A DNA stretch of 64,000 nt from Deferrisomatales bacterium (lineage in GTDB: Bacteria > Desulfobacterota > Deferrisomatia > Deferrisomatales > JACRMM01): assembly GCA_033551855.1 (NCBI GenBank), contig JAWSUI010000002.1, positions 96,001 through 160,000 of the forward strand, given 5' to 3'. Positions 50,524-60,896 of this stretch are shown in pieces (within the stretch, counting starts at the first letter, position 1; each line of letters begins with the position of its first letter). A program made the position numbers and the translations under genes. Under the pieces are notes generated by a model that did not search any database, was not told where the DNA came from, and worked only from the letters and a program-made list of their open reading frames with translations.

Positions 50524-50527
50524 GGCC

Positions 50528-51442
50528 GTGACCGGGCTCCGCCGCGCCTTCGTGGTGAACCCCGCCTCGGCCGGTTGCCCCCGGGACCTGGGGGGCCGAA
50601 TCCTGCGGCGGTTCCCGGGCGCCCGGGTCCGGCAGACCCGGGGGCCCGGCGACGGGGGCTCCCAGGCTGCCCTGGCCGTGGAAGAGGGGGCCCGCGTCCT
50701 GGTGGCCTGCGGCGGCGACGGCACCGTGCGCGAGGTGGCGACGGCGGCGGCCGCCGCCGGCGCCACCCTCGGCCTGGTGCCCGTGGGCATGGTGAACCTC
50801 CTGGCCTCCGAGCTGGGGTTGCCGCGGGGGGTGGAGGGTGCCCTGCAGGTGGTCGAGGAAGGCCGCACGGTCGACGTCTACCCGGGCCGGTGTGAGCCGC
50901 AGGGGGGGACGGAGACCCTCTTCTTTCTCTGCGTGACGGCGGGCCCGGACGCCGACGCCGTCCACGCCGTGGGCCGCGACAAACGCTTCCTGGGCCGGTA
51001 CGCCTACGGCCTGCGCTTTGCCCTGCGGCTGCTGCGCCCCCTGACGGACGAGGTCGCGTGGGACGAAGGGGGGGCGGCCGGCCGGCGGGGCCGGTGCGCC
51101 CAGTTCCTCTGTCTCAAGCTGCCCCACTACGCCGGCCGGTATCGCGTCTCGGAGGCCGTCTCCCCCTACCGCCCGGGCCTCGAGGCCGTGGCCGTCGCCG
51201 GGGGGCGGGGGAGGGTCCTCCGGTTCTTCGCCGCCGCCCTGGGCGGCCGGGTTCGACCGCTGCGCGGGGTCTCGCGGTTTCCCGTCACAGACGTCGTGCT
51301 GCACCTGCCGGGGCACGGCCGGTTCCAGGTGGACGGAGACCCCTTCACCGCCCCGGCGGTGCGCCTCACCGCGGGTCGCGACCCCCTCCGGGTGCTGGCG
51401 CCGGCGGGGGCATGTTGCGGTCCGGAGCGGACGGCCCCATGA
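50528..51442 (+). CDS. Diacylglycerol kinase-family lipid kinase
   Basis: VVNPASAG, ACGGDGTVREV, P.G..NLLA.ELG, FQVDGD. Confidence 0.85.
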   Translation: MTGLRRAFVVNPASAGCPRDLGGRILRRFPGARVRQTRGPGDGGSQAALAVEEGARVLVACGGDGTVREVATAAAAAGATLGLVPVGMVNLLASELGLPRGVEGALQVVEEGRTVDVYPGRCEPQGGTETLFFLCVTAGPDADAVHAVGRDKRFLGRYAYGLRFALRLLRPLTDEVAWDEGGAAGRRGRCAQFLCLKLPHYAGRYRVSEAVSPYRPGLEAVAVAGGRGRVLRFFAAALGGRVRPLRGVSRFPVTDVVLHLPGHGRFQVDGDPFTAPAVRLTAGRDPLRVLAPAGACCGPERTAP

Positions 51443-52092
51443 GGGGGCGGCCGATCCTCCTCGCCGGTCTGCTGGCGCTCGGCGTGGCGCTGGGCTACGC
51501 CGGAGTCCTGGACCATCCGCGGGTCCGGGAGCTCCTGGGGGCCGCGGCGGGGCAGTGGTGGACGCCGCCGGCCCTCGTGGCGGCCATGACCGGCGCCTAC
51601 GCCTTCGCCCTGCCCGGGTCCGCCCTGATCCTGCCGACGGCGCTCCTCTACCCTCCCCCGTTGACCGCCGGCATAGCCGCGGTGGGGGGAGGTCTGGGGG
51701 CCCTCTGGGCCTACCACGTGGCCGGCCGCCTGGGAGCCTCCTGGGTCCGCGAGGTCTCGGCCAGCCCTGCCTTTGGGCTCCTGCGCCGCAACAGCGGTTT
51801 CCCCGTCCTGTGCGCGCTGCGGGTCCTGCCGGCGTTCCCTCACTCCTTCATCAACTACGGGGCCGGGCTGCTCCGGGTGCCCCGGCCGGCCCTGTTCCTC
51901 TCGGCCGTGGCCGGCCTCGGGGTCAAGGGGTACCTCTATGCCGCCGCTGTCCAGCAATTGGCCGAGGCCGGGGACCCCGTCGAGCTGGCGAACCTCCGGA
52001 CCCTCTGGCCGCTGCTGGCCCTGGCTCTGCTCCTGGGAGCCGGGTGGGGTCTGCGTCGGTGGTGGGAAGGCAACGGGGGGCGCAGCGGGTAG
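51439..52092 (+). CDS. TVP38/TMEM64 (VTT/DedA-like) membrane protein
   Basis: LPGS, G..GA..AY..AG.LG, LRVLP.FP...INY.AG. Confidence 0.85.
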   Translation: MRGRPILLAGLLALGVALGYAGVLDHPRVRELLGAAAGQWWTPPALVAAMTGAYAFALPGSALILPTALLYPPPLTAGIAAVGGGLGALWAYHVAGRLGASWVREVSASPAFGLLRRNSGFPVLCALRVLPAFPHSFINYGAGLLRVPRPALFLSAVAGLGVKGYLYAAAVQQLAEAGDPVELANLRTLWPLLALALLLGAGWGLRRWWEGNGGRSG

Positions 52093-52109: not shown

Positions 52110-55100
52110 TCAGGATGTCCCTGGGTCCTCCGCCTCCCTGCCCGAAGATCCCCACCAGTTCCGCAGCCGCCGCAGGCGGCGGGGTCCGCGTCGAAAGATT
52201 TCCTCCAGGGAGAGATGGGGGTCTCGGGCCGGATCCTCCAGGTAGTCCCGGATCGCGTCGAGACGGCGTCGGAGGTCCCCCTCCAGGGCGAGGCGCAGCC
52301 CAGCCCTTCCCGCCAGGATGCGCTGCTTGAGGTTCGGTGGGGGGCGCTCTCCTTGGTGCTTCCTCAGCTTGTACTCGATCCGTGCGGCGATCAGACCCAA
52401 GAGGGTCTCCTGGTGCTCGGGGCCGAGCCACAGCACCTCCGGGACCAGGTCCCCGAAGTGGGTCACCCCCAGGACATCCTTCCCCTGCGCCCAGTAGCCG
52501 GCAAGGAACTCCGGATCGAGGTCCCGGTAGTTCTGCAGGGGCAGATACATGCGCCGCAGGTGCTGGAGGACCTTTTCGGCCTTGCGCCTGTGGCCGCCGA
52601 TGATGACGGGGCTCCCCACCTCTCCGCGCTTGACCCCCTTGGTCCAGGGGGCGCCCGTGATCCCGAAGTCGTTGCACACCGGAATGAGCAGGAGGGCGGA
52701 GAGGGTGCTGATGGCCAGCGCGTAGCCCGCCGAGGGGCCTCCCACCGCGTAGGAGGCGGACAGCAGTTGGTGGTGGACGGTGTACTTGTCGAGGAACTCT
52801 CCCAGAAGCCGGGCGACGTTGATCTTGGGTGAGAGGCCCTGGAGGTAGTTCTCCACCAGTGTAAGTGCCTCCCGGGCGGACTGTTGGGTCATCTGGACGG
52901 CCATGTCCATCTCCGCCGCGGTGGGCGCGGTCGAGGAGACCGCACCGGTCACCAGCACCTTCTCGGCCGAGAGGTTGTAGACGAGGCTCGTCGCGATGGG
53001 CAGGAGCACGCCCGCCACGTCGCTTGCCCCCACACCGACGATGAACCCAACCTGGGGCTCTTGGCTGAGCTCCGCCTCCAGGAACTCGTCGAGTTGCACC
53101 TTCCCCTTCTTCGTCGGGCTCTGACTCATCTCCTCCCGGGCCGCCTCGAGGTGGGAAGCTGCCAGGGGGTAGTCGTCGCTGCCCCGCACCCCGTCCGCCA
53201 GCGCCAGGACCTCTTCGCAGTGCCGCAGGAACTCCAGGGGCTCGCTCTCCAGCCGTGCCTTGGCCGTTCGAGGAGCCCCGAGGGCCTCCAGGATCCCGAG
53301 GAGGATCCGCAGGTTGAACTTCACGAAGTTCTCTCGGGCTTCGGGGGGCGCTGCGGTGAGCTCCCGAAGCCTGCGAATGACCGCCCACTCCGTGGCCCTC
53401 AGGGCCAGGGCCTTGTCGGTGAAGGCGGCGTAATCGGCCGGCGTGTTGCACACCGCTCGGGCCGCCTCCTCGATCCGTGCGGGGTCGAGCTTCTCTGCCA
53501 GTGGGATGCCGGCCAGCTTCTTCGCCACGATCTCGGCGACGTCGTCCCGCCGCAAGTGTCCGCTGATCTCCAGGGCCTTGAGGCGCTTGGAGCGCACGAG
53601 GGCCGGGTCCAGGATGTCGAGGCGGTTGGTGGTGAGCACGGTGAAGACCCGGTTGAGGGGCACCTCCCCGTCCACGAGGTTGAGGAACTTGTTGGTCACT
53701 TTGTCCTGGGGTGCCCCTCCCGAGGGGCTCCGGCGGGGGACGAGGGCGTCCCCTTCGTCGATGAAGACCACGGCCGGCGCGATCATCTTGGCAATGTCGT
53801 ACACGTGCTCCAGGTTCTCCACCGTGCCGTCGATGGGGTTCATCGGATCCTGCAGGTCCGTGGGACGCACGGCCAGGTCGTGCACGTCGGGATTCTCGCT
53901 CAGCCACGCCCGGGCCAGGAAGGTCTTGCCGCTGCCAGGAGGGCCCGCCAGCACGAGCCCCTTCTCGTCGCTCACCCCGTAGTAGAGGCAGTTCATGGCC
54001 AGCTCGGAGAACTGGTTCTTGATCCCGCCCACGTACTGCTCCCAGCGCACCGAGCGATCCATCCGGTCCACGACCCGCTTGTAGAGATCCCCGTGGGCGT
54101 TGCGGGCCACCTGCTCGAAGGCGCTGCGCACCAGGAGGGCGTCGTCCAGGTGATCCGGCCGGAACCCCCCCCGCATCTCGACGATGGACCGGACCAGCTT
54201 GCGCACATAGGAGGGAGTGATCTTGAGCGCCTTCTCCCGGAAGATCGGGTAGAGCCGGTCAACCGCCGCTTCCAGATCCGCCGGGGGCAGGTACGAGATC
54301 CCCGGGGGCAGGGGACCCACGGGCGGGAAGCCCACCCGGATGTCCGCCCGCAGGAGCTCGATCCGCACGACCTCCCGCAGATTGTCGCGGCTCTTCCAGA
54401 ACTCGGAGACATCGACGATGCGGCCCTTCTCGACGAAGCGGCGGTAGATGGCCGCATCGAACCTCTCGGGCTGGTCCGTCGTGGCGACGAGGACACAGTC
54501 GCGCTGACCGTCGATGATCTCGTCCAGCAGGATGTTGGCGGTGTCCACCAGGGTCTGTTGCTGGCTCGAGACCGAGGTGGACCGGCTTTCCGCCCGGCCG
54601 AAGGCGCTGTGGGCCTCCTCCACGTGTCGGACGGTGGTGCGTCGAGGGTCCCCGAGGGCCTTGCGCAGGTAGTTGCCGGGTTCCCCGGCCAGGGCGGTCT
54701 GGTAGTCGTTGGGGGTGACCACGGCGTAGTCCACGGCGAGGCCCCGCTCCTGGAGCTCGGCCAGGTGCCCGGCAACGCGCTTCTGGAAGAGCCGCCGTAC
54801 CAGCCAGCGGCGCGAAAGGAACTGGTAGAGCTTGAGGCGCCGCCGGCGGTAGATGTCCTGTGCCAGGGTCGGATCCACCGACTCGATGGTGCGCCAAAAA
54901 GGCTCTTCGGCCAGCACCTCCTCGCGCTTCTTGCCCAGGTCGACCTCGGGAAGGACTTCGTGGCGGAACATCACGGCCTCGAGGGCCTCGGCCGTCGTCG
55001 CGGTCTTGCCGGCGCCGCTGGGACCGATCACCAGCAGTAGCGGGGCCTTGGGCACCTCGGGATCGGCCAGGTACTCCTTGCGGACGTGGACCCGGTAGAT

Positions 55101-55511
55101 CTTTTCGAGGAGCTCCCGGAACTCCGAGGGGACGTGAACGTCGGCGAGCTCCCGGTTCAGGAGCGCCAGCAGGTAGGTGTAGTCCTTGGCCGTCAGCTCC
55201 CTCTCCAGCATGCGGTTCCACGCCGCCCGGGGGGAGGTCTCTCCGGAGAATTCGAACCGGCGCTGCCAGTCGGTGAGGATCTGGGGGTCCCGCAGGATCG
55301 CAAACCCCTGTTCCCGAGGGCGCCAGAGCAGCGAGAGCAGCCCTTCCACCAGGCCGTGCAGGAGGCCCGACGGCGGGGTGAACTGGTTCAGGCGTGCCCG
55401 CAGGAATGCCTTGGTCTCGTAGGACCAAGAGGCCACGAGCGCCTCGATCTCCCGGATGCGCCGCTCCGGGAGGCGGACGTACCGGACCTCTCTGGTGACC
55501 CGTTTGGCCAT
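52110..55511 (-). CDS. Double AAA+ ATPase fused to a C-terminal Lon-like (S16) protease domain
   Basis: AAA1: GPSGAGKT, HVEEAH, TTDQPERFDAAIYRRF; AAA2: GPPGSGKT, VFIDEGD, TTNRLDILDPALVRSKR; protease: PQVG...G, VTG, QQSAREA, GGPSAG, ITG, IGG...K. Confidence 0.85.
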   Translation of the reverse strand: MAKRVTREVRYVRLPERRIREIEALVASWSYETKAFLRARLNQFTPPSGLLHGLVEGLLSLLWRPREQGFAILRDPQILTDWQRRFEFSGETSPRAAWNRMLERELTAKDYTYLLALLNRELADVHVPSEFRELLEKIYRVHVRKEYLADPEVPKAPLLLVIGPSGAGKTATTAEALEAVMFRHEVLPEVDLGKKREEVLAEEPFWRTIESVDPTLAQDIYRRRRLKLYQFLSRRWLVRRLFQKRVAGHLAELQERGLAVDYAVVTPNDYQTALAGEPGNYLRKALGDPRRTTVRHVEEAHSAFGRAESRSTSVSSQQQTLVDTANILLDEIIDGQRDCVLVATTDQPERFDAAIYRRFVEKGRIVDVSEFWKSRDNLREVVRIELLRADIRVGFPPVGPLPPGISYLPPADLEAAVDRLYPIFREKALKITPSYVRKLVRSIVEMRGGFRPDHLDDALLVRSAFEQVARNAHGDLYKRVVDRMDRSVRWEQYVGGIKNQFSELAMNCLYYGVSDEKGLVLAGPPGSGKTFLARAWLSENPDVHDLAVRPTDLQDPMNPIDGTVENLEHVYDIAKMIAPAVVFIDEGDALVPRRSPSGGAPQDKVTNKFLNLVDGEVPLNRVFTVLTTNRLDILDPALVRSKRLKALEISGHLRRDDVAEIVAKKLAGIPLAEKLDPARIEEAARAVCNTPADYAAFTDKALALRATEWAVIRRLRELTAAPPEARENFVKFNLRILLGILEALGAPRTAKARLESEPLEFLRHCEEVLALADGVRGSDDYPLAASHLEAAREEMSQSPTKKGKVQLDEFLEAELSQEPQVGFIVGVGASDVAGVLLPIATSLVYNLSAEKVLVTGAVSSTAPTAAEMDMAVQMTQQSAREALTLVENYLQGLSPKINVARLLGEFLDKYTVHHQLLSASYAVGGPSAGYALAISTLSALLLIPVCNDFGITGAPWTKGVKRGEVGSPVIIGGHRRKAEKVLQHLRRMYLPLQNYRDLDPEFLAGYWAQGKDVLGVTHFGDLVPEVLWLGPEHQETLLGLIAARIEYKLRKHQGERPPPNLKQRILAGRAGLRLALEGDLRRRLDAIRDYLEDPARDPHLSLEEIFRRGPRRLRRLRNWWGSSGREAEDPGTS

Positions 55512-55517
55512 GTCGGT

Positions 55518-56465
55518 TCAGCGGGCTGCGGGGGGGGCCGGCGCCGGCTGTGGCGGTGGGGCGGGCAGGGTCAAGGCGGGGGCGCCCCCGGTGTTTTGGA
55601 TCACCACCGTGTTCTGGCCCGTCTGGTTCTTCTCATAGGCCGTGGCCCACTTCTGCTGGTTGAGGAACTCGAGCAGGGCCGTGTCGGTGGCGCCATCGGG
55701 GCGCCCGACCTCCCGTTGGAGGTCCCGGATGCTCTCGACGTACGCGCCGTAGAGCTTCCGGATTCGGCTGGCCTCCTGGTCGGCGGCGTAGTTCTCCGCC
55801 TCGGCGATGAGCTCGCGCCGCTTCTTTTCCTCACTGGCTTCCACGAGGTTGTCGCCGAAGCGGGTCTCCCGGAGAACGAAGCTGACCACCTCTACGCCGT
55901 ACTTCTGTTCCAGGGTGGGCCCACCGACGTTGATGGGTCGGTCCTTGAGGGCCCGGTAGATCTCCTCCTTGATCTCTTCCCTCGCGCTCACGAGGCGGTT
56001 GATCTCCTGGGCCTGGAGAATGTCTTTCGCCAGCCCGTCGTAGTCGGCCTGGAGGAGCTCGAGCGGACGCAGGTTCTCGATCGCCCACAGGCGCAGGTCG
56101 CGGATGCGGAAGGTGAGGACACCGGAGGTCCAGAGGGCGACGTTCTCCCGGGAGATGATCCGCACCGGCTCCTCGACCCCCCCCAGCGCCAGGCGCTGGT
56201 TCATCAAGGGCACTTCTTGCTCGATCCGGGTGAAGAACGGGAGCCTCGTGTGCCAGCCGACCTCGGTGATCACCTCACGGGTGCCCCCCAGCCGCTCGAG
56301 CACCACGGCGTAGTTGAGGCGAACCTTGAAGATCGTGCGGGTCGCGTACACCACGGCGACGGCGCCGTAGAGGAGCCCCGCCAGGACCGCCAGGCCCACC
56401 AGGCGGCGCACGAGGGCCGTCACGGCGGCCCTCCTCAGCAAAGGGGGAGTCTCCGGGTGTTCCAT
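55518..56465 (-). CDS. SPFH/Band-7 (HflC-like) membrane protein
   Basis: N-terminal TM, VVLERLG, GWH.RLPF, ISRENV, .REEI, KYGVEV.SF....RF, helical AEAE segment. Confidence 0.85.
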   Translation of the reverse strand: MEHPETPPLLRRAAVTALVRRLVGLAVLAGLLYGAVAVVYATRTIFKVRLNYAVVLERLGGTREVITEVGWHTRLPFFTRIEQEVPLMNQRLALGGVEEPVRIISRENVALWTSGVLTFRIRDLRLWAIENLRPLELLQADYDGLAKDILQAQEINRLVSAREEIKEEIYRALKDRPINVGGPTLEQKYGVEVVSFVLRETRFGDNLVEASEEKKRRELIAEAENYAADQEASRIRKLYGAYVESIRDLQREVGRPDGATDTALLEFLNQQKWATAYEKNQTGQNTVVIQNTGGAPALTLPAPPPQPAPAPPAAR

Positions 56466-57060: not shown

Positions 57061-57198
57061 AAGGGTTGGTCCCTTGCGCCCCGGGCCGTTCCTCAGTAGA
57101 AAGGACGTCCATCCGGGCTTCCGTGGCACCTGCACCGGGACGAGGGGGGCGGGGGCCGCCCCGTGCTCCGGAGACGGTGTCGGAGCAGGAGGTGCCGC

Positions 57199-58233
57199 TT
57201 GAAGGTCCAGTTTCGGAATCTGGTGTTCGAGGGGGGTGGGGTCAGGGGCATTGCCTACGTGGGGGCCATGAAGTTGCTGGAGCAACGGGGAGCCCTCGAC
57301 CACGTCCGCAGGGTCGGCGGCGCCAGCGCCGGGGCGATCAACGCGCTGATCCACGCCCTGGGATTTCCGATCGCCGAGCAGCAGCAGCTTCTATCCTCGA
57401 CGGATTTCCGGCGGTTCCTCGACGACTCCTTCGGGGTGATCCGCGACGTGCGCCGCCTCGCGAGGGAATTCGGCTGGCACAAGGGCGACTTCGTCTCCAC
57501 TTGGGTGGGCGACCTCATCGAGAGCAAGCTCGGGCGGCGCGACGCTACCTTTCGGGACCTCCAGGCTGCCGGCCGTCCTGACCTCTACGTGGTCGGGACC
57601 AACCTGAGCACCGGGTGGGCAGAGGTCTTCTCCGCCGAGCGCCACGGCGACATGCCCCTGGCCAGGGCGCTGCGCATCAGCATGTCGATTCCCCTCTTCT
57701 TCGCGGCGGTGCGTCATGGGGCCCGGGGGGACGTCTACGTGGACGGGGGCGTGGTGCTGAATTACCCGGTCAAGCTCTTCGACCGGGAACGGTACGTGGA
57801 CCTCGCGGGGGAGCCCTACGGGGCGGCAAGCACGGCATACTACAGCCGCGAGAACGCCCGCTTCGCCCTGGAAAGGCCGGGGCGGAGCCCCTACGTGTAC
57901 AATCGGCAGACCCTCGGCCTGCGGCTGGACACCCGGGAGGAGATCGCGCTCTACCGGTACGACGAGCCCCCCAGGGGCCGCCCCATCTCCCGGTTCACGG
58001 AGTACGCCCGGGCGCTCACCTCCGCCCTGCTGCGGGTGCAGGAAAACCAGCACCTCCACGAGGACGACTGGCACCGTACCCTGTACATCGACACCCTGGA
58101 CGTCCGGACCACGGACTTTGCGCTGAGCGAAGAGAAGAAGGCGGCGCTCCTGGAGTCGGGCATCGCGTGTGCCGAGGCCTACTTCCGCTGGTTCGAGGAC
58201 CCGGCGCAGGTCCCCGCGAACCGCGTAGGGTGA
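57199..58233 (+). CDS. Patatin-like phospholipase
   Basis: NLVFEGGGVRG, GASAG, SMSIPLFF, YVDGG; TTG start after AGGAGGT. Confidence 0.93.
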   Translation: MKVQFRNLVFEGGGVRGIAYVGAMKLLEQRGALDHVRRVGGASAGAINALIHALGFPIAEQQQLLSSTDFRRFLDDSFGVIRDVRRLAREFGWHKGDFVSTWVGDLIESKLGRRDATFRDLQAAGRPDLYVVGTNLSTGWAEVFSAERHGDMPLARALRISMSIPLFFAAVRHGARGDVYVDGGVVLNYPVKLFDRERYVDLAGEPYGAASTAYYSRENARFALERPGRSPYVYNRQTLGLRLDTREEIALYRYDEPPRGRPISRFTEYARALTSALLRVQENQHLHEDDWHRTLYIDTLDVRTTDFALSEEKKAALLESGIACAEAYFRWFEDPAQVPANRVG

Positions 58234-58311: not shown

Positions 58312-60102
58312 GTGAACCCCCGCATCGCCTCCATGGAGAACCTCATCGCCCGGGATCCGGGCGGGAGGAACGTCTTCGGGCTGGTCGCCGCGGACCAGCT
58401 CCGGCTCGCCGCCCAGGCGCTGCGGTTCGCCCGGCGCGTGGCCGTGGTCACCGGGTACTTCATCCCGGAGGCCGGGGCGGGGGAGACGGATGGCCCCCCC
58501 GGGGCGGTGGCCCTCGGCGAGGCGCTGGGGGCCCTGGGCATCCCCGTGGACTACCTGACCGACGGCCCCAACGCGCCGCTTCTGCGCTCCCTGGGCGCCG
58601 AGCCCATCGTCCTCGAGGGCGCCCCTGAAGACGTCGCCGCGGGCTGCCGACGCTACCTGGAGGAGAGCCGCCCCACCCACCTGGTCTCGGTGGAGCGGGC
58701 GGGGCGCGCGGCGGACGGGACGTACCGCAACATGCGCGGTACCGACATCACGACCGTCACCGCACCCCTGGACGAGCTCTTCCTGGAGGCGTCGCAGCGG
58801 GGCCTGACCACCATCGGGGTCGGGGACGGCGGCAACGAGATCGGAATGGGCCGGGTGTTCGCCGCAACGAGAACCGGCGTGCCCCATGGCCGGGCGCTCG
58901 CCACCACCGTGGCGACCGACTTTTGCGTGGCCGCCGGCGTCTCCAACTGGGGAGCCTTGGGGCTCGTGGGCGCCCTCTCCGTCCTGGAGGGGCGGGACCT
59001 GCTGCCTTCCGGGGCTCGCCTCGTGGAGGGGCTCCACCGCTTGGTGGAGGTGGGCGGTGCCGTGGACGGCGTGACCCGCCGGCGGGAGCCGACGGTGGAC
59101 GGCCTGCCCGTGGCCGAGTCTCTCCGGGTCCTCGCGGAGTTGCGCGGACACGTGGCCCCGCCGCCCTTCCTCTCAGGAAGGCCCCTGGCCGTAGGCGTCC
59201 TGGGGTGGGGGGAGACCGGGCGCGCCGCCGCTGCGCTGTTGCGACGCCGGGGGCACCGTGTGCGGGTCTCGGACCACGCGGCGGTGTGTCCCCCTTCCGA
59301 GGAGGACGAAATCCTCGAGGGCTTCGAAGCAGGTGGGCATACCGTCGGCTTCCTCGCCCCCTGCGACGCGGTGGTTGCGAGCCCGGGTGTGCCGGTTGAC
59401 GCCCCGATCCGGGCGGCCCTCCACGAGCGGGGCATCCCCGTCGTGAGCGCCCTGGAGATGGCCTACGCGTTCTGTCCCCATCCCCTCGTAGGCGTGACCG
59501 GGACCGTGGGGAAGCGCACCACGGTGGAGCTCATCGGGCGCATGTTTCGCCAGGCCGGACGCCCCGTGGCTGTCGGCGGCAACCGCGGCGCACCGCTGGC
59601 GGCCCTCCTGCTCGGGCAGGACGGCCGGCCCCCGGAGCCGGACACGACTCTGGTCCTGGCGGTATCGAGCTTCCAGTTGGAGGGCGTGGTGCACTTCCGT
59701 CCCCCCATCGCGGCGATGCTCAACATCGACGCGGCACACCTCGACCGGCACCGCACCGTGGCCGAGTACGTGCGGGTCAAGAGCCGCATCTTCATGAACC
59801 ACCGCCCCGAGGACGTGCTCATCCTCAACGGCGAGGATTCGAGGCTCCGGCCCCTTGCATCGAAACACCCGGGGCGCACCTTCTTCGTGGGGCGCCGCCG
59901 GACCGGGGATCTCGGCGCGTGGCTGGAGCGGGGGGGGGTCCGTGCGAACACCGAGGGGGCCGTGGAGCGGCTGGGCCGGGCCGAGCACCCCTACCCGGAG
60001 GTGCTGCTCACCGCCGTGCTGGCCGCTCTGCTGAGCGGGATTCCCCCCGACGCCGCCGGGGCTGCGCTGCGCCGGGTTCGCACCGGGGGAGGGAGCACCT
60101 GA
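58312..60102 (+). CDS. DUF4392 (D-glutamate cyclase C-terminal-like) domain fused to MurD-like N-terminal and central domains
   Basis: DPGGR, TGYF, ETDGPPGA, VERAG...G.Y.NMRG, IGVGDGGNEIGMG, VSNWG; then VLGWGETG, ASPGVP, GVTGTVGKRTT, GGN.G, SSFQLE, HLDRH, KSRIF. Confidence 0.85.
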   Translation: MNPRIASMENLIARDPGGRNVFGLVAADQLRLAAQALRFARRVAVVTGYFIPEAGAGETDGPPGAVALGEALGALGIPVDYLTDGPNAPLLRSLGAEPIVLEGAPEDVAAGCRRYLEESRPTHLVSVERAGRAADGTYRNMRGTDITTVTAPLDELFLEASQRGLTTIGVGDGGNEIGMGRVFAATRTGVPHGRALATTVATDFCVAAGVSNWGALGLVGALSVLEGRDLLPSGARLVEGLHRLVEVGGAVDGVTRRREPTVDGLPVAESLRVLAELRGHVAPPPFLSGRPLAVGVLGWGETGRAAAALLRRRGHRVRVSDHAAVCPPSEEDEILEGFEAGGHTVGFLAPCDAVVASPGVPVDAPIRAALHERGIPVVSALEMAYAFCPHPLVGVTGTVGKRTTVELIGRMFRQAGRPVAVGGNRGAPLAALLLGQDGRPPEPDTTLVLAVSSFQLEGVVHFRPPIAAMLNIDAAHLDRHRTVAEYVRVKSRIFMNHRPEDVLILNGEDSRLRPLASKHPGRTFFVGRRRTGDLGAWLERGGVRANTEGAVERLGRAEHPYPEVLLTAVLAALLSGIPPDAAGAALRRVRTGGGST

Positions 60103-60896
60103 TGCTCGAAACCAATCGTCTCCCCACCGGACGGGACGTGCGCGACGCCTGCCGCCGGGGCGAGCTCACGGGGCCCACCGCCGGCTTGGCCCCTGGGTAC
60201 GGCCAGGCCAACCTGGTCGTCGTGCCCCAGGAGGCGGCCGAGGACTTCGCGGCCTTCTGTGAGCGAAACCCCAGGCCCTGCCCCCTCTTGGAGCGGACCG
60301 GACCCGGCGGCTGGGAGCCCCGGCGCCTCGCGCCGGGGGCCGACCTGCGCACCGACCTCCCCCGCTACCGGGTGCTGCGGGAGGGGCGGTGCACCGCTCG
60401 GCCCACGGACATCCTTTCCCTGTGGCGTGAGGACTTCGTGGCCTTCCTGCTCGGATGCTCCTTCACCTTCGAGGCCGCGCTCCTCGACGCCGGGGTCCCG
60501 GTTCGACACCTCGAGGAGGGGCGCAACGTGCCCATGTTCCGCACATCCTTGGCCTGCGTCCCCGCAGGGCCCTTCAGGGGCCCCTTGGTGGTCTCCATGC
60601 GCCCCATGCCCCCGGAGCAGGCGGCCCGCGCGGCCGAGATCACGGCGCGCCACCCCCACTTCCACGGCGCTCCGGTCCACGTGGGCGACCCCGGGGCCAT
60701 CGGCGTCGCCGACCTCGCCAGACCAGACTATGGCGACGCCGTCACCGTGCGACCCGGGGAGGTTCCCGTGTTCTGGGCCTGCGGCGTCACCCCTCTGGAG
60801 GCCCTCCTTGGTGCGGGGCTCGAGGTCGCCGCGACCCACGAGCCCGGCCACATGTTCGTGACGGACCTCTCCGACCGGGATCTGCTGGGGCTGTAG
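60102..60896 (+). CDS. DUF1445 putative hydro-lyase (D-glutamate cyclase family)
   Basis: TAGLAPGYGQANL, FC.RNPRPCP, DLRTDLPRY, GCSFTFE, NVPMF.T, VVSMRP, HGAPVH.G, VFWACGVTP, TH.PGHMFVTD. Confidence 0.92.
   Translation: MLETNRLPTGRDVRDACRRGELTGPTAGLAPGYGQANLVVVPQEAAEDFAAFCERNPRPCPLLERTGPGGWEPRRLAPGADLRTDLPRYRVLREGRCTARPTDILSLWREDFVAFLLGCSFTFEAALLDAGVPVRHLEEGRNVPMFRTSLACVPAGPFRGPLVVSMRPMPPEQAARAAEITARHPHFHGAPVHVGDPGAIGVADLARPDYGDAVTVRPGEVPVFWACGVTPLEALLGAGLEVAATHEPGHMFVTDLSDRDLLGL

Follow-up and report, generated by a model that had tools for sequence, protein, structure and literature searches.

A conserved gene pair for an SPFH protein and an AAA-AAA-Lon protease that resembles FtsH-HflK/C and likely acts on membrane proteins

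Organization of the locus and of the two proteins

The window, that is, the whole 64,000 nt stretch of DNA analyzed, contains in its reverse strand an SPFH/Band-7 gene of 315 aa (positions 55518–56465; ORF, Pfam and fold comparison) followed, in the same strand as all the features below, by a gene for an AAA-AAA-Lon protease of 1133 aa (52110–55511; ORF, Pfam, and structure and profile comparisons). ORF coordinates placed 6 nt (55512–55517) between the SPFH stop and the protease ATG, in agreement with an earlier, sequence-only reading, which had described a single-TM SPFH gene 6 nt ahead of the protease start on the same strand. The bounds that it gave to the unit, a convergent gene and a gap of about 730 bp, also held: 17 nt lie between the protease stop and the end of a convergent VTT-domain gene, and on the other side the SPFH start is 727 nt away from the start of a divergent patatin gene (taken as 57193). 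In homologs, most SPFH-to-protease spacings fall between −1 and +3 nt. Such tight spacing is suggestive of translational coupling, and from the spacing we infer co-transcription of both genes. A promoter scan of the window revealed no sigma-70-like site, and terminators were at chance level. By consensus patterns, the regions upstream of 75 SPFH genes contained the heat-shock element CIRCE in 0/75, sigma-54 in 1/75, no common palindrome, and sigma-70-like sites in 16, vs. 4.9 in mononucleotide shuffles. The VTT, DAGK, patatin and MFS neighbors from the window were discarded as a third conserved gene of the unit, matching 0/144 loci, and no SPFH-protease fusion appeared among the matches listed in homolog searches.

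The SPFH protein consists of a basic N-tail, one TM, the SPFH domains, a coiled coil and a C-terminal segment. Pfam Band_7 (PF01145) matched residues 47–232 (E 1e-13, 52 bits vs. a cut-off of 23.6), Foldseek retrieved stomatin, HflK/C and PHB (E about 1e-9), and the model contains a helix at 207–253; together, they give the SPFH domain followed by a coiled coil that is expected of SPFH proteins. The only hydrophobic segment (residues 22–40, KD 2.28) lies within a predicted TM helix (residues 22–42; 56340–56402) without a proline hairpin, predicted as N-in/C-out from hydropathy, structure model and charge. The basic amphipathic N-tail preceding it (residues 8–21; 56403–56444), in whose homolog alignment R12 is invariant, is predicted to be cytoplasmic and would be a candidate contact for the protease. 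No NCBIfam family matched the protein, and ESM Atlas returned two SPFH clusters of its own family; this family is distinct from HflK/C, QmcA and FloA. From the structures of homologous families (PMC12624060), the protein would be expected to form a ring or dome.

The protease comprises, in this order, an N-terminal region, an AAA D1 with an insertion, an AAA D2, a Lon S16 peptidase and a C-terminal helical hairpin. D1 (about residues 155–485; 54057–55049; alignment and motif positions) contains Walker A at 163–170, a Walker B-like motif at 294–299 with an invariant E299, D346 at sensor 1 and R357/R358; its sensor 1 and Walker B depart from the canonical form. D2 (about residues 486–800; 53112–54056; profile and structure matches, alignment) has a canonical Walker A, Walker B D585/E586, N629 and R640/R643, and is nearest to the D2 of VAT/Cdc48. 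The motor matched p97/Cdc48, NVL/Rix7/VAT and VAT D2, and D1 and D2 matched each other in a profile comparison (prob 92.9, E 4e-7); by these matches, the motor is Cdc48/VAT-like and not Lon-like. Residues 1–480 retrieved generic AAA clusters from ESM Atlas. The protease would be hexameric, as in homologous families. The D1 pore loop is Leu274-Ala275-Gly276, with Leu as the pore residue in 22 of the 28 Desulfobacterota-type rows, including the window protein, and D2 has no conserved aromatic pore residue across 47 rows. Since the pore loops of the window clade lack conserved aromatics, its unfolding power is uncertain and strong extraction by the window protease appears doubtful, given the predicted loops of both rings; p97 tolerates Leu-Ala in D1 and carries an aromatic motif in D2 (PMC10216129).

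The Lon (S16) peptidase domain (about residues 809–1026; 52434–53087; Pfam and alignment) includes a Lon_C match (PF05362, residues 809–999, 26 bits vs. a cut-off of 21.1), and among PDB structures it matches the LonB-type protease domain of Archaeoglobus best. The predicted catalytic residues from the alignment, Ser927 (52731–52733) and Lys977 (52581–52583), are kept in 122/122 homologs and in 47/47 rows that include distant ones, and the dyad is also invariant in relatives of 30–41% identity, DPANN archaea among them. Their spacing is 50, 7 residues longer than that of E. coli Lon 679/722 (43). The confidence of the structure model is low at residues 798–841 and 948–975, and the dyad is a prediction from sequence. 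In the model, the C-terminal part forms a long helical hairpin (residues 1031–1107; 52191–52421).

As read earlier, the protease has no obvious TM, and its most hydrophobic stretches (821–839 and 928–946) both fall within the Lon domain. Its description as soluble is more doubtful, because two amphipathic segments, both candidate membrane anchors, keep their character across the family. The helix at residues 49–62 (55326–55367; helix scan over the family) ranks first as an amphipathic stretch and shows the lowest conservation among the four stretches that passed, with a variable sequence (0.43) and a constant hydrophobic pattern. The other segment is a 74-aa helical D1 insertion (residues 185–258; 54738–54959; structure model and alignment) that separates Walker A from Walker B; at about 222–250 it forms an amphipathic helix-turn-helix of strongly basic character, and the mean net charge at 222–239 is +7.6. 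These two amphipathic segments likely anchor the protease to the inner leaflet.

Conservation and distribution of the pair

Of the 78 homologous loci that allowed a test, 77 carry the SPFH and protease genes next to each other (43 clusters at 90%). Ten of 401 genomes from the phylum contain both genes, the same ten for each, and none contains only one, SPFH absence in the other 391 being defined as no match at E ≤ 1e-12. Likewise, 51 of 201 genomes from the class Desulfobacteria contain the SPFH gene, 52/52 copies adjoin the protease, and the orphan proteases are two fragments only. This near-perfect co-occurrence bears out the earlier expectation that the genes are conserved as neighbors, and the protease homologs do not mostly lack an adjacent SPFH gene; judged from these genomes, the two genes form an obligate unit. 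Its carriers are sediment sulfate-reducing bacteria, and a cultured one, Desulfatitalea tepidiphila, was among the named matches. The unit was also lost beside a transposase.

Identity is at least 54% across the phylum, and the pairwise distances of both proteins correlate (r 0.87), which is weak evidence since kin share history. In an unrooted FastTree phylogeny, without a clade test, the window clade nests among Desulfobacterales rows; this nesting and the DPANN relatives make horizontal transfer of the pair probable. Across 77 pairs (Neff 38), inter-protein MI-APC did not rise above the noise level within the proteins. A complex prediction from paired 77-row alignments, with SPFH residues 1–295 and protease residues 1–700, that is, leaving out its Lon and C-terminal parts, scored 0.11 for a mark of 0.32, which speaks neither for nor against a complex. 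Literature searches, covering mostly open-access papers, found no description of the protein or of the pair.

Comparison with known systems

The pair shares with FtsH-HflK/HflC and m-AAA-prohibitins a single-TM SPFH protein with a predicted extracytoplasmic dome and, on the cytoplasmic side, a peptidase fused to an AAA motor of the classical clade. However, FtsH has an M41 zinc peptidase, one AAA, and an N-terminal TM plus periplasmic domain, whereas the window protease has a Lon S16 Ser-Lys peptidase and two AAA, with neither TM nor periplasmic domain; without an M41 match, and with two AAA plus Lon_C, it falls outside FtsH (M41). HflK/HflC are two SPFH genes and the unit has one, not in tandem and without an NCBIfam match that would assign it to HflK/HflC (SPFH3); unlike in FtsH-HflK/HflC, it adjoins the protease gene.

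A tandem classical AAA D1-D2 is common to the protease and Cdc48/p97/VAT, and its Leu-Ala-Gly loop in D1 resembles p97 K277-L278-A279 (PMC10216129). HflK/C, prohibitin and Erlin cages lie across the membrane from cytosolic AAA machinery, and Erlin is linked to p97/Cdc48 extraction (PMC12624060); an SPFH cage opposite a Cdc48-type motor, as in Erlin1/2-linked ERAD, is also predicted for the window unit. In contrast to Cdc48/p97/VAT, the protease has no CDC48_N Pfam match for an N-domain and no conserved aromatic in the D2 pore loop, and scores 84.6 vs. 802 bits for TIGR01243, while it does have the 74-aa D1 insertion and a peptidase fused in cis, in a unit without adaptor genes.

The C-terminal S16 domain with a Ser-Lys dyad is shared with LonA, LonB, LonBA and LonC, and GPSAG resembles the LonA motif. 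Nevertheless, Lon proteases have a motor made of one HCLR-clade module (PMC9569914), whereas this one has two classical-clade modules, no LON N-domain and a longer dyad spacing (50 vs. 43), and its Lon NCBIfam scores are far under the cut-offs, outside all four types. The D1 insertion occupies the place of the LonB membrane anchor, between Walker A and B (PMC9569914), but the latter is a TM and the insertion, basic and amphipathic, contains no TM segment.

The NfeD-SPFH operons (QmcA-YbbJ, PH1510/PH1511, FloA) likewise pair an SPFH gene with a serine protease gene in an operon of two; there, the partner is NfeD, a TM protein that carries a ClpP-like domain, whereas here it is an ATP-dependent AAA-AAA-Lon, and the unit contains no nfeD gene. 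BrxL is an AAA-Lon fusion and IetAS an AAA plus an S8 protease. As in the window unit, BrxL (BREX) and IetAS link an AAA ATPase to a serine protease, but the IetA matches to D2 are weak (44.6 bits, far under the NCBIfam cut-off of 510) and extend over a single AAA domain, and no BREX or S8 genes were found in the flanks scanned.

Proposed function and alternative interpretations

We propose, with a probability of about 0.55, that the pair encodes an accessory, ATP-dependent protease system associated with the membrane, which combines a predicted periplasmic SPFH ring with a Cdc48-like AAA-AAA-Lon at the cytoplasmic face and degrades membrane or membrane-associated proteins. The periplasm-facing ring would fence in an inner-membrane patch, at whose cytoplasmic face the double-AAA motor-Lon protease would dock, the two making contact probably via the SPFH N-tail/TM or a common lipid patch. 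By homologous families, D1 would be the substrate-gripping ring, most distant members having an aromatic pore loop; the membrane or membrane-associated substrate would then pass through D2 into the Lon chamber, to be degraded by the peptidase. The two proteins likely form an extra machine that extracts and destroys membrane proteins and that resembles the FtsH-HflK/C system, although assembled from other parts. FtsH contacts the interior of the HflK/C cage by its periplasmic part (PMC12624060), a contact that the window protease, without TM or periplasmic domain, would lack, which counts against the proposal. So do the non-canonical sensor 1 and Walker B of D1, the pore loops without conserved aromatics, the upstream counts for CIRCE and sigma-54, and the HflK/HflC-like pair, three FtsH and two LonA-size genes that the genome already has.

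A single chain that joins a Cdc48-type motor to Lon and is always encoded beside one SPFH gene would widen the known range of AAA+ proteases; for Cdc48-type motors, the partner is a separate proteasome. It would also be a minimal two-component model for what an SPFH cage contributes to membrane-protein degradation by a protease that lies wholly outside it, and the replacement of Trp/Tyr by Leu that occurred naturally in the D1 pore loop would be a built-in test of the division of labor in double rings. More tentatively, the pair could define an undescribed family of energy-dependent proteases in which a Cdc48-type double motor fused to a Lon peptidase, clamped on the inner leaflet by its amphipathic helices under its own SPFH cage, extracts and destroys membrane proteins without TM, ubiquitin or proteasome; if true, the pair would amount to a prokaryotic equivalent, in two genes, of Erlin-p97 ERAD, common to Desulfobacterota and DPANN archaea.

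The K+R content before the TM exceeds that after it in 121 of 123 SPFH homologs (mean 5.9 vs. 3.3), so that the dome probably faces the periplasm by the positive-inside pattern. This bias is only moderate. The predicted topology agrees with the HflKC-FtsH analogy of the sequence-only reading, but not with its suggestion that the SPFH oligomer cages a soluble protease: since the ATP-dependent protease must be cytoplasmic, a periplasmic dome cannot enclose it. A cytoplasmic dome enclosing or capping the protease, as in QmcA or stomatin, would be easier to reach for a TM-less partner, and QmcA, the nearest solved SPFH by sequence (PDB; stomatin by fold), faces the cytoplasm (PMC2636767), there being basic residues also after the TM. 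Still, the N-tail is the longer and more basic side, helix 8–43 is straight, without the hairpin proline, and the QmcA TM begins near residue 7 in the alignment, leaving no comparable tail, which makes this topology improbable. Slightly better placed, albeit also unlikely, is the same complex as a weak unfoldase, an ATP-gated peptidase that trims peptides, proteins already unfolded or a single dedicated substrate, which might be its SPFH partner. The pore loops without aromatics in the window clade and the 7 extra residues in the Ser-Lys spacing fit this possibility, as does the exceptional conservation of the SPFH body (0.81–0.88), suggestive of a specific partner; moreover, NfeD cleaves its operon SPFH (stomatin) partner in Pyrococcus (PMC13086221). 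Conversely, both rings keep the Walker A Lys, catalytic Glu and Arg fingers, the D1 aromatic is retained in 17/19 distant and 6/28 near rows, and a periplasmic SPFH body would be out of reach as a substrate.

Least probable is an anti-phage module, an option put forward earlier, or an abortive-infection module; in this reading, SPFH would sense membrane breach and the protease would be the effector. Its patchy distribution (10/401; 51/201), the probable horizontal transfer and the loss beside a transposase would suit such a role, but the flanks are housekeeping genes that vary by lineage, with stable sites next to CinA, an RlmD-like methylase and a hydrolase, and not the defense islands that had been envisaged. 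PADLOC gave no match for SPFH and only generic AAA matches for the protease, with neither the system-specific profiles nor the island context of PADLOC 2.0 systems; at 1e-8, it matched 7 of 111 flanking proteins, apparently via widespread domains, and Pfam identified four of these seven as an RlmD-like methylase, a sigma-54 activator, a TPR protein and sigma-70. No full-length copies were found in phage, plasmid and IMG/VR searches, the viral scans yielding generic AAA domains among the matches listed, or nothing. The identity of at least 54% across the phylum also argues against this role, high sequence conservation being less typical of arms-race genes. The housekeeping flanks and the lack of phage or plasmid copies therefore disfavor anti-phage activity and, together with the other proteolytic genes of the same genome, point to an accessory unit: this genome also holds three FtsH genes, two LonA-size genes and an HflK/HflC-like pair, the latter a separate tandem of Band_7 genes on contig C50.

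Organization and conservation of the gene pair

The window contains an ORF for a 315-aa SPFH protein (55518–56465, minus strand), with a Band_7 domain (residues 47–232) preceded by one hydrophobic segment (22–40), whose stop lies 6 nt from the start of a same-strand ORF (52110–55511) for a protease of 1133 aa in which two AAA stretches are followed by a Lon_C domain. This is the arrangement described in the sequence-only reading, and the proposed borders were also recovered: the protease stop is separated by 17 nt from the end of a convergent VTT-domain gene, and a divergent patatin gene leaves a gap of 727 nt upstream of the SPFH gene. The GC content of the pair (0.68) matches that of the window (0.67–0.75). 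The lipid-related genes flanking the pair (a DAGK-like kinase and the VTT-domain protein, 50525–52092, plus strand; the patatin, 57193–58233, plus strand) are conserved at 0/144 homologous loci, so that the unit consists of exactly two genes. Among PADLOC models, the patatin matches that of a phospholipase effector (E 9e-10), probably generically. The plus-strand interval 58312–60896 holds a 596-aa protein, whose MurD-like domains are joined to a C-terminal domain resembling D-glutamate cyclase, and then another ORF, which we take to resemble the other part of D-glutamate cyclase.

Genome and metagenome scans retrieved 104 homologous loci (a redundant set that comes down to 65 distinct proteases and 43 clusters at 90%), 26 of them without upstream DNA; the SPFH gene was directly upstream, on the same strand, in 77 of the 78 testable loci. 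In the other one (L015:5510–7546), the first half of SPFH runs into the middle of the protease: SPFH residues 1–166 are fused straight to protease residues 222–602 and then 980–1116, by either internal deletions or misassembly. Intergenic gaps were mostly −1 to +3 nt and longer in some lineages, reaching 103 nt among 76 representatives. Both genes occurred in the same 10 of 401 genomes of the phylum, including that of the window, and one gene alone in none; the expected conservation as neighbours was thus upheld. Among 201 genomes of the class of a Desulfobacterales MAG (G401), 51 contained SPFH and 53 a protease match, and, by the listed coordinates, none of the 52 SPFH copies was more than about 250 nt from a protease start. 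The two genomes with a protease match and no SPFH carried only fragments of around 200 and 100 aa: a Lon-domain remnant with an altered catalytic motif that adjoins a transposase-like ORF, SPFH and motor being gone (L156:4202–6090, genome G536), and a 100-aa piece near a YdjI-like gene, where relatives carry an intact pair (L157:3925–4224, genome G529). Loss appears to remove both genes together, among carriers that are kin and not independent. Another genome, G559, has two intact copies of the pair (contigs C39 and C160).

Motor and peptidase of the protease

The protease model (mean pLDDT 76.9, pTM 0.59; some stretches of the Lon domain are of low confidence) had p97/Cdc48 as its best Foldseek match, VIA-align retrieved NVL, p97, Rix7 and VAT (Z 17–18), and the family profile best matched VAT D2; by these matches, the motor is a pair of classical AAA domains of type II. 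In Lon proteases, by contrast, the motor consists of a single HCLR module (PMC9569914). The second AAA domain, D2, has a canonical Walker A, D585/E586, N629 and R640/R643, each kept in 122/122 aligned homologues. The first, D1, is homologous to D2 and retains the Walker A Lys, E299 and R357/R358, with departures in Walker B (Glu-Glu) and sensor 1 (Asp). The Lon domain is alignable with LonB-type and LonA protease domains, and its predicted dyad, S927 and K977, is invariant (122/122 near and 47/47 mixed sequences), with a spacing of 50 residues versus 43 in E. coli Lon (PMC2605481, in excerpt); the AAA-AAA-Lon_C form is absent from the architecture table in the excerpted text of that survey. 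Besides two LonA-size genes, the genome of the window has Lon_C-domain genes at C7:24885–25190, C17:58961–59275 and C13:55418–55738 (frames of 626–983 aa).

The D1 pore loop is aromatic (Trp/Tyr-Tyr) in 17 of 19 distant homologues, resembling the loops of VAT; the 28 Desulfobacterota-type sequences have Trp or Tyr in 6 cases and Leu in 22, including the window protein. Since no conserved aromatic was found in the D2 loop, this distribution suggests that D1 was originally the ring that grips. According to passages of PMC10216129, p97 grips by K277-L278-A279 in D1 and has an aromatic motif in D2; lacking the latter, the window enzyme may, by analogy, be a weaker unfoldase, and of all the evidence the pore-loop pattern speaks most clearly against strong extraction as its role.

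Membrane topology and proposed mechanism

The SPFH proteins are 57–90% identical among themselves; in sequence they match QmcA and stomatin weakly, in fold they match stomatin, HflK/C and prohibitin, and the remaining 391 genomes of the phylum gave nothing at E ≤ 1e-12. Judged by sequence, they are a distinct family. The excerpted text of a 2009 SPFH survey (PMC2636767) names no conserved partner besides NfeD, nor does the word ATPase appear in its main text. Lys plus Arg residues are more numerous before than after the TM segment in 121 of 123 sequences, and the model shows a single straight helix (8–43), both of which favour an N-in/C-out orientation, as in HflK/C and unlike QmcA (PMC2636767, in excerpt). 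The SPFH dome would then be periplasmic and unable to enclose an ATP-using protease, which could reach only the basic N-tail, the TM segment and the corralled lipid patch; the caging earlier suggested for the SPFH oligomer is therefore not supported.

The protease was also regarded as soluble, which holds in that no TM segment was found, but it is probably not simply so. Helix 49–62 ranks first in amphipathicity among 1115 windows, and its low sequence conservation (0.43) under a constant hydrophobic pattern fits a lipid-facing role. Additionally, D1 is interrupted between Walker A and B by an insertion of 74 aa (75–90 aa in 18/19 distant homologues), the latter half of which forms a basic amphipathic helix-turn-helix (222–239, net +7.6; Pro at 236 nearly invariant); LonB has its membrane anchor inserted in the same interval (PMC9569914).

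With its predicted periplasmic dome and cytoplasmic protease, the unit would be laid out like HflK/C-FtsH, prohibitin-m-AAA and Erlin-p97 (PMC12624060), except that FtsH reaches into its cage and the window protease cannot. We regard the unit as working like HflKC-FtsH or Erlin-p97, yet as belonging to neither of these systems and to no Lon subfamily. As to assembly, contacts and substrates, we infer, with a probability of about 0.55, that an SPFH ring would organise a patch of inner membrane, with a protease hexamer docked beneath it through amphipathic helices and SPFH N-tails; D1 would grip the substrate and pass it on through D2, for cleavage in the Lon chamber. That the enzyme is instead a peptidase gated by ATP and acting on unfolded or dedicated substrates seems unlikely, and a cytoplasmic SPFH cage slightly more so, given the Lys plus Arg bias and the straight helix. 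A defence function is the least probable: PADLOC matched 7 of 111 flanking proteins, apparently via widespread domains, which also disfavours a location near defence islands.

Neighbourhood and distribution

Flanking genes that recur at the pair encode CinA, an RlmD-like methylase, an alpha/beta hydrolase and an amidohydrolase. Three lineages have a second, unrelated SPFH locus close to the pair: a convergent NfeD-FloA operon (7 of 76 representatives; loci L162–L164, L167, L169, L171, L172 and L175), an upstream, same-strand YdjI-like Band_7_1 zinc-ribbon gene (7; L005, L006, L057, L064, L092, L094 and L105) or divergent HflK/HflC-like genes (1; L014:2740–4691). Membrane-microdomain genes may tend to cluster, or three insertions may have occurred there by chance. 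The genome of the window also contains a tandem Band_7 pair, three FtsH genes and the LonA-size genes, to which the unit is therefore an addition and not a substitute. The upstream regions had no CIRCE or sigma-54 element in common. Searches of the open literature brought up no description of the AAA-AAA-Lon protein or the pair.

When 1.84 billion representatives were searched by profile, about nine clusters of full or near-full length emerged; distant members, those named being from Woesearchaeota and Nanoarchaeota, are 32–39% identical to the window protease. In an unrooted FastTree phylogeny the window clade was placed among Desulfobacterales sequences, excluding the Desulfobacula and Desulfuromonas groups, which suggests horizontal transfer. 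No full-length copy appeared in 50,697 phage records, 72,556 plasmid records or IMG/VR scans. A single sequence on a 3.5-kb contig, P0273 (595 aa), which could be a real domain shuffle or an assembly chimera, joins a caspase-like C14 domain to the Lon domain and C-terminal hairpin of the AAA-AAA-Lon family.
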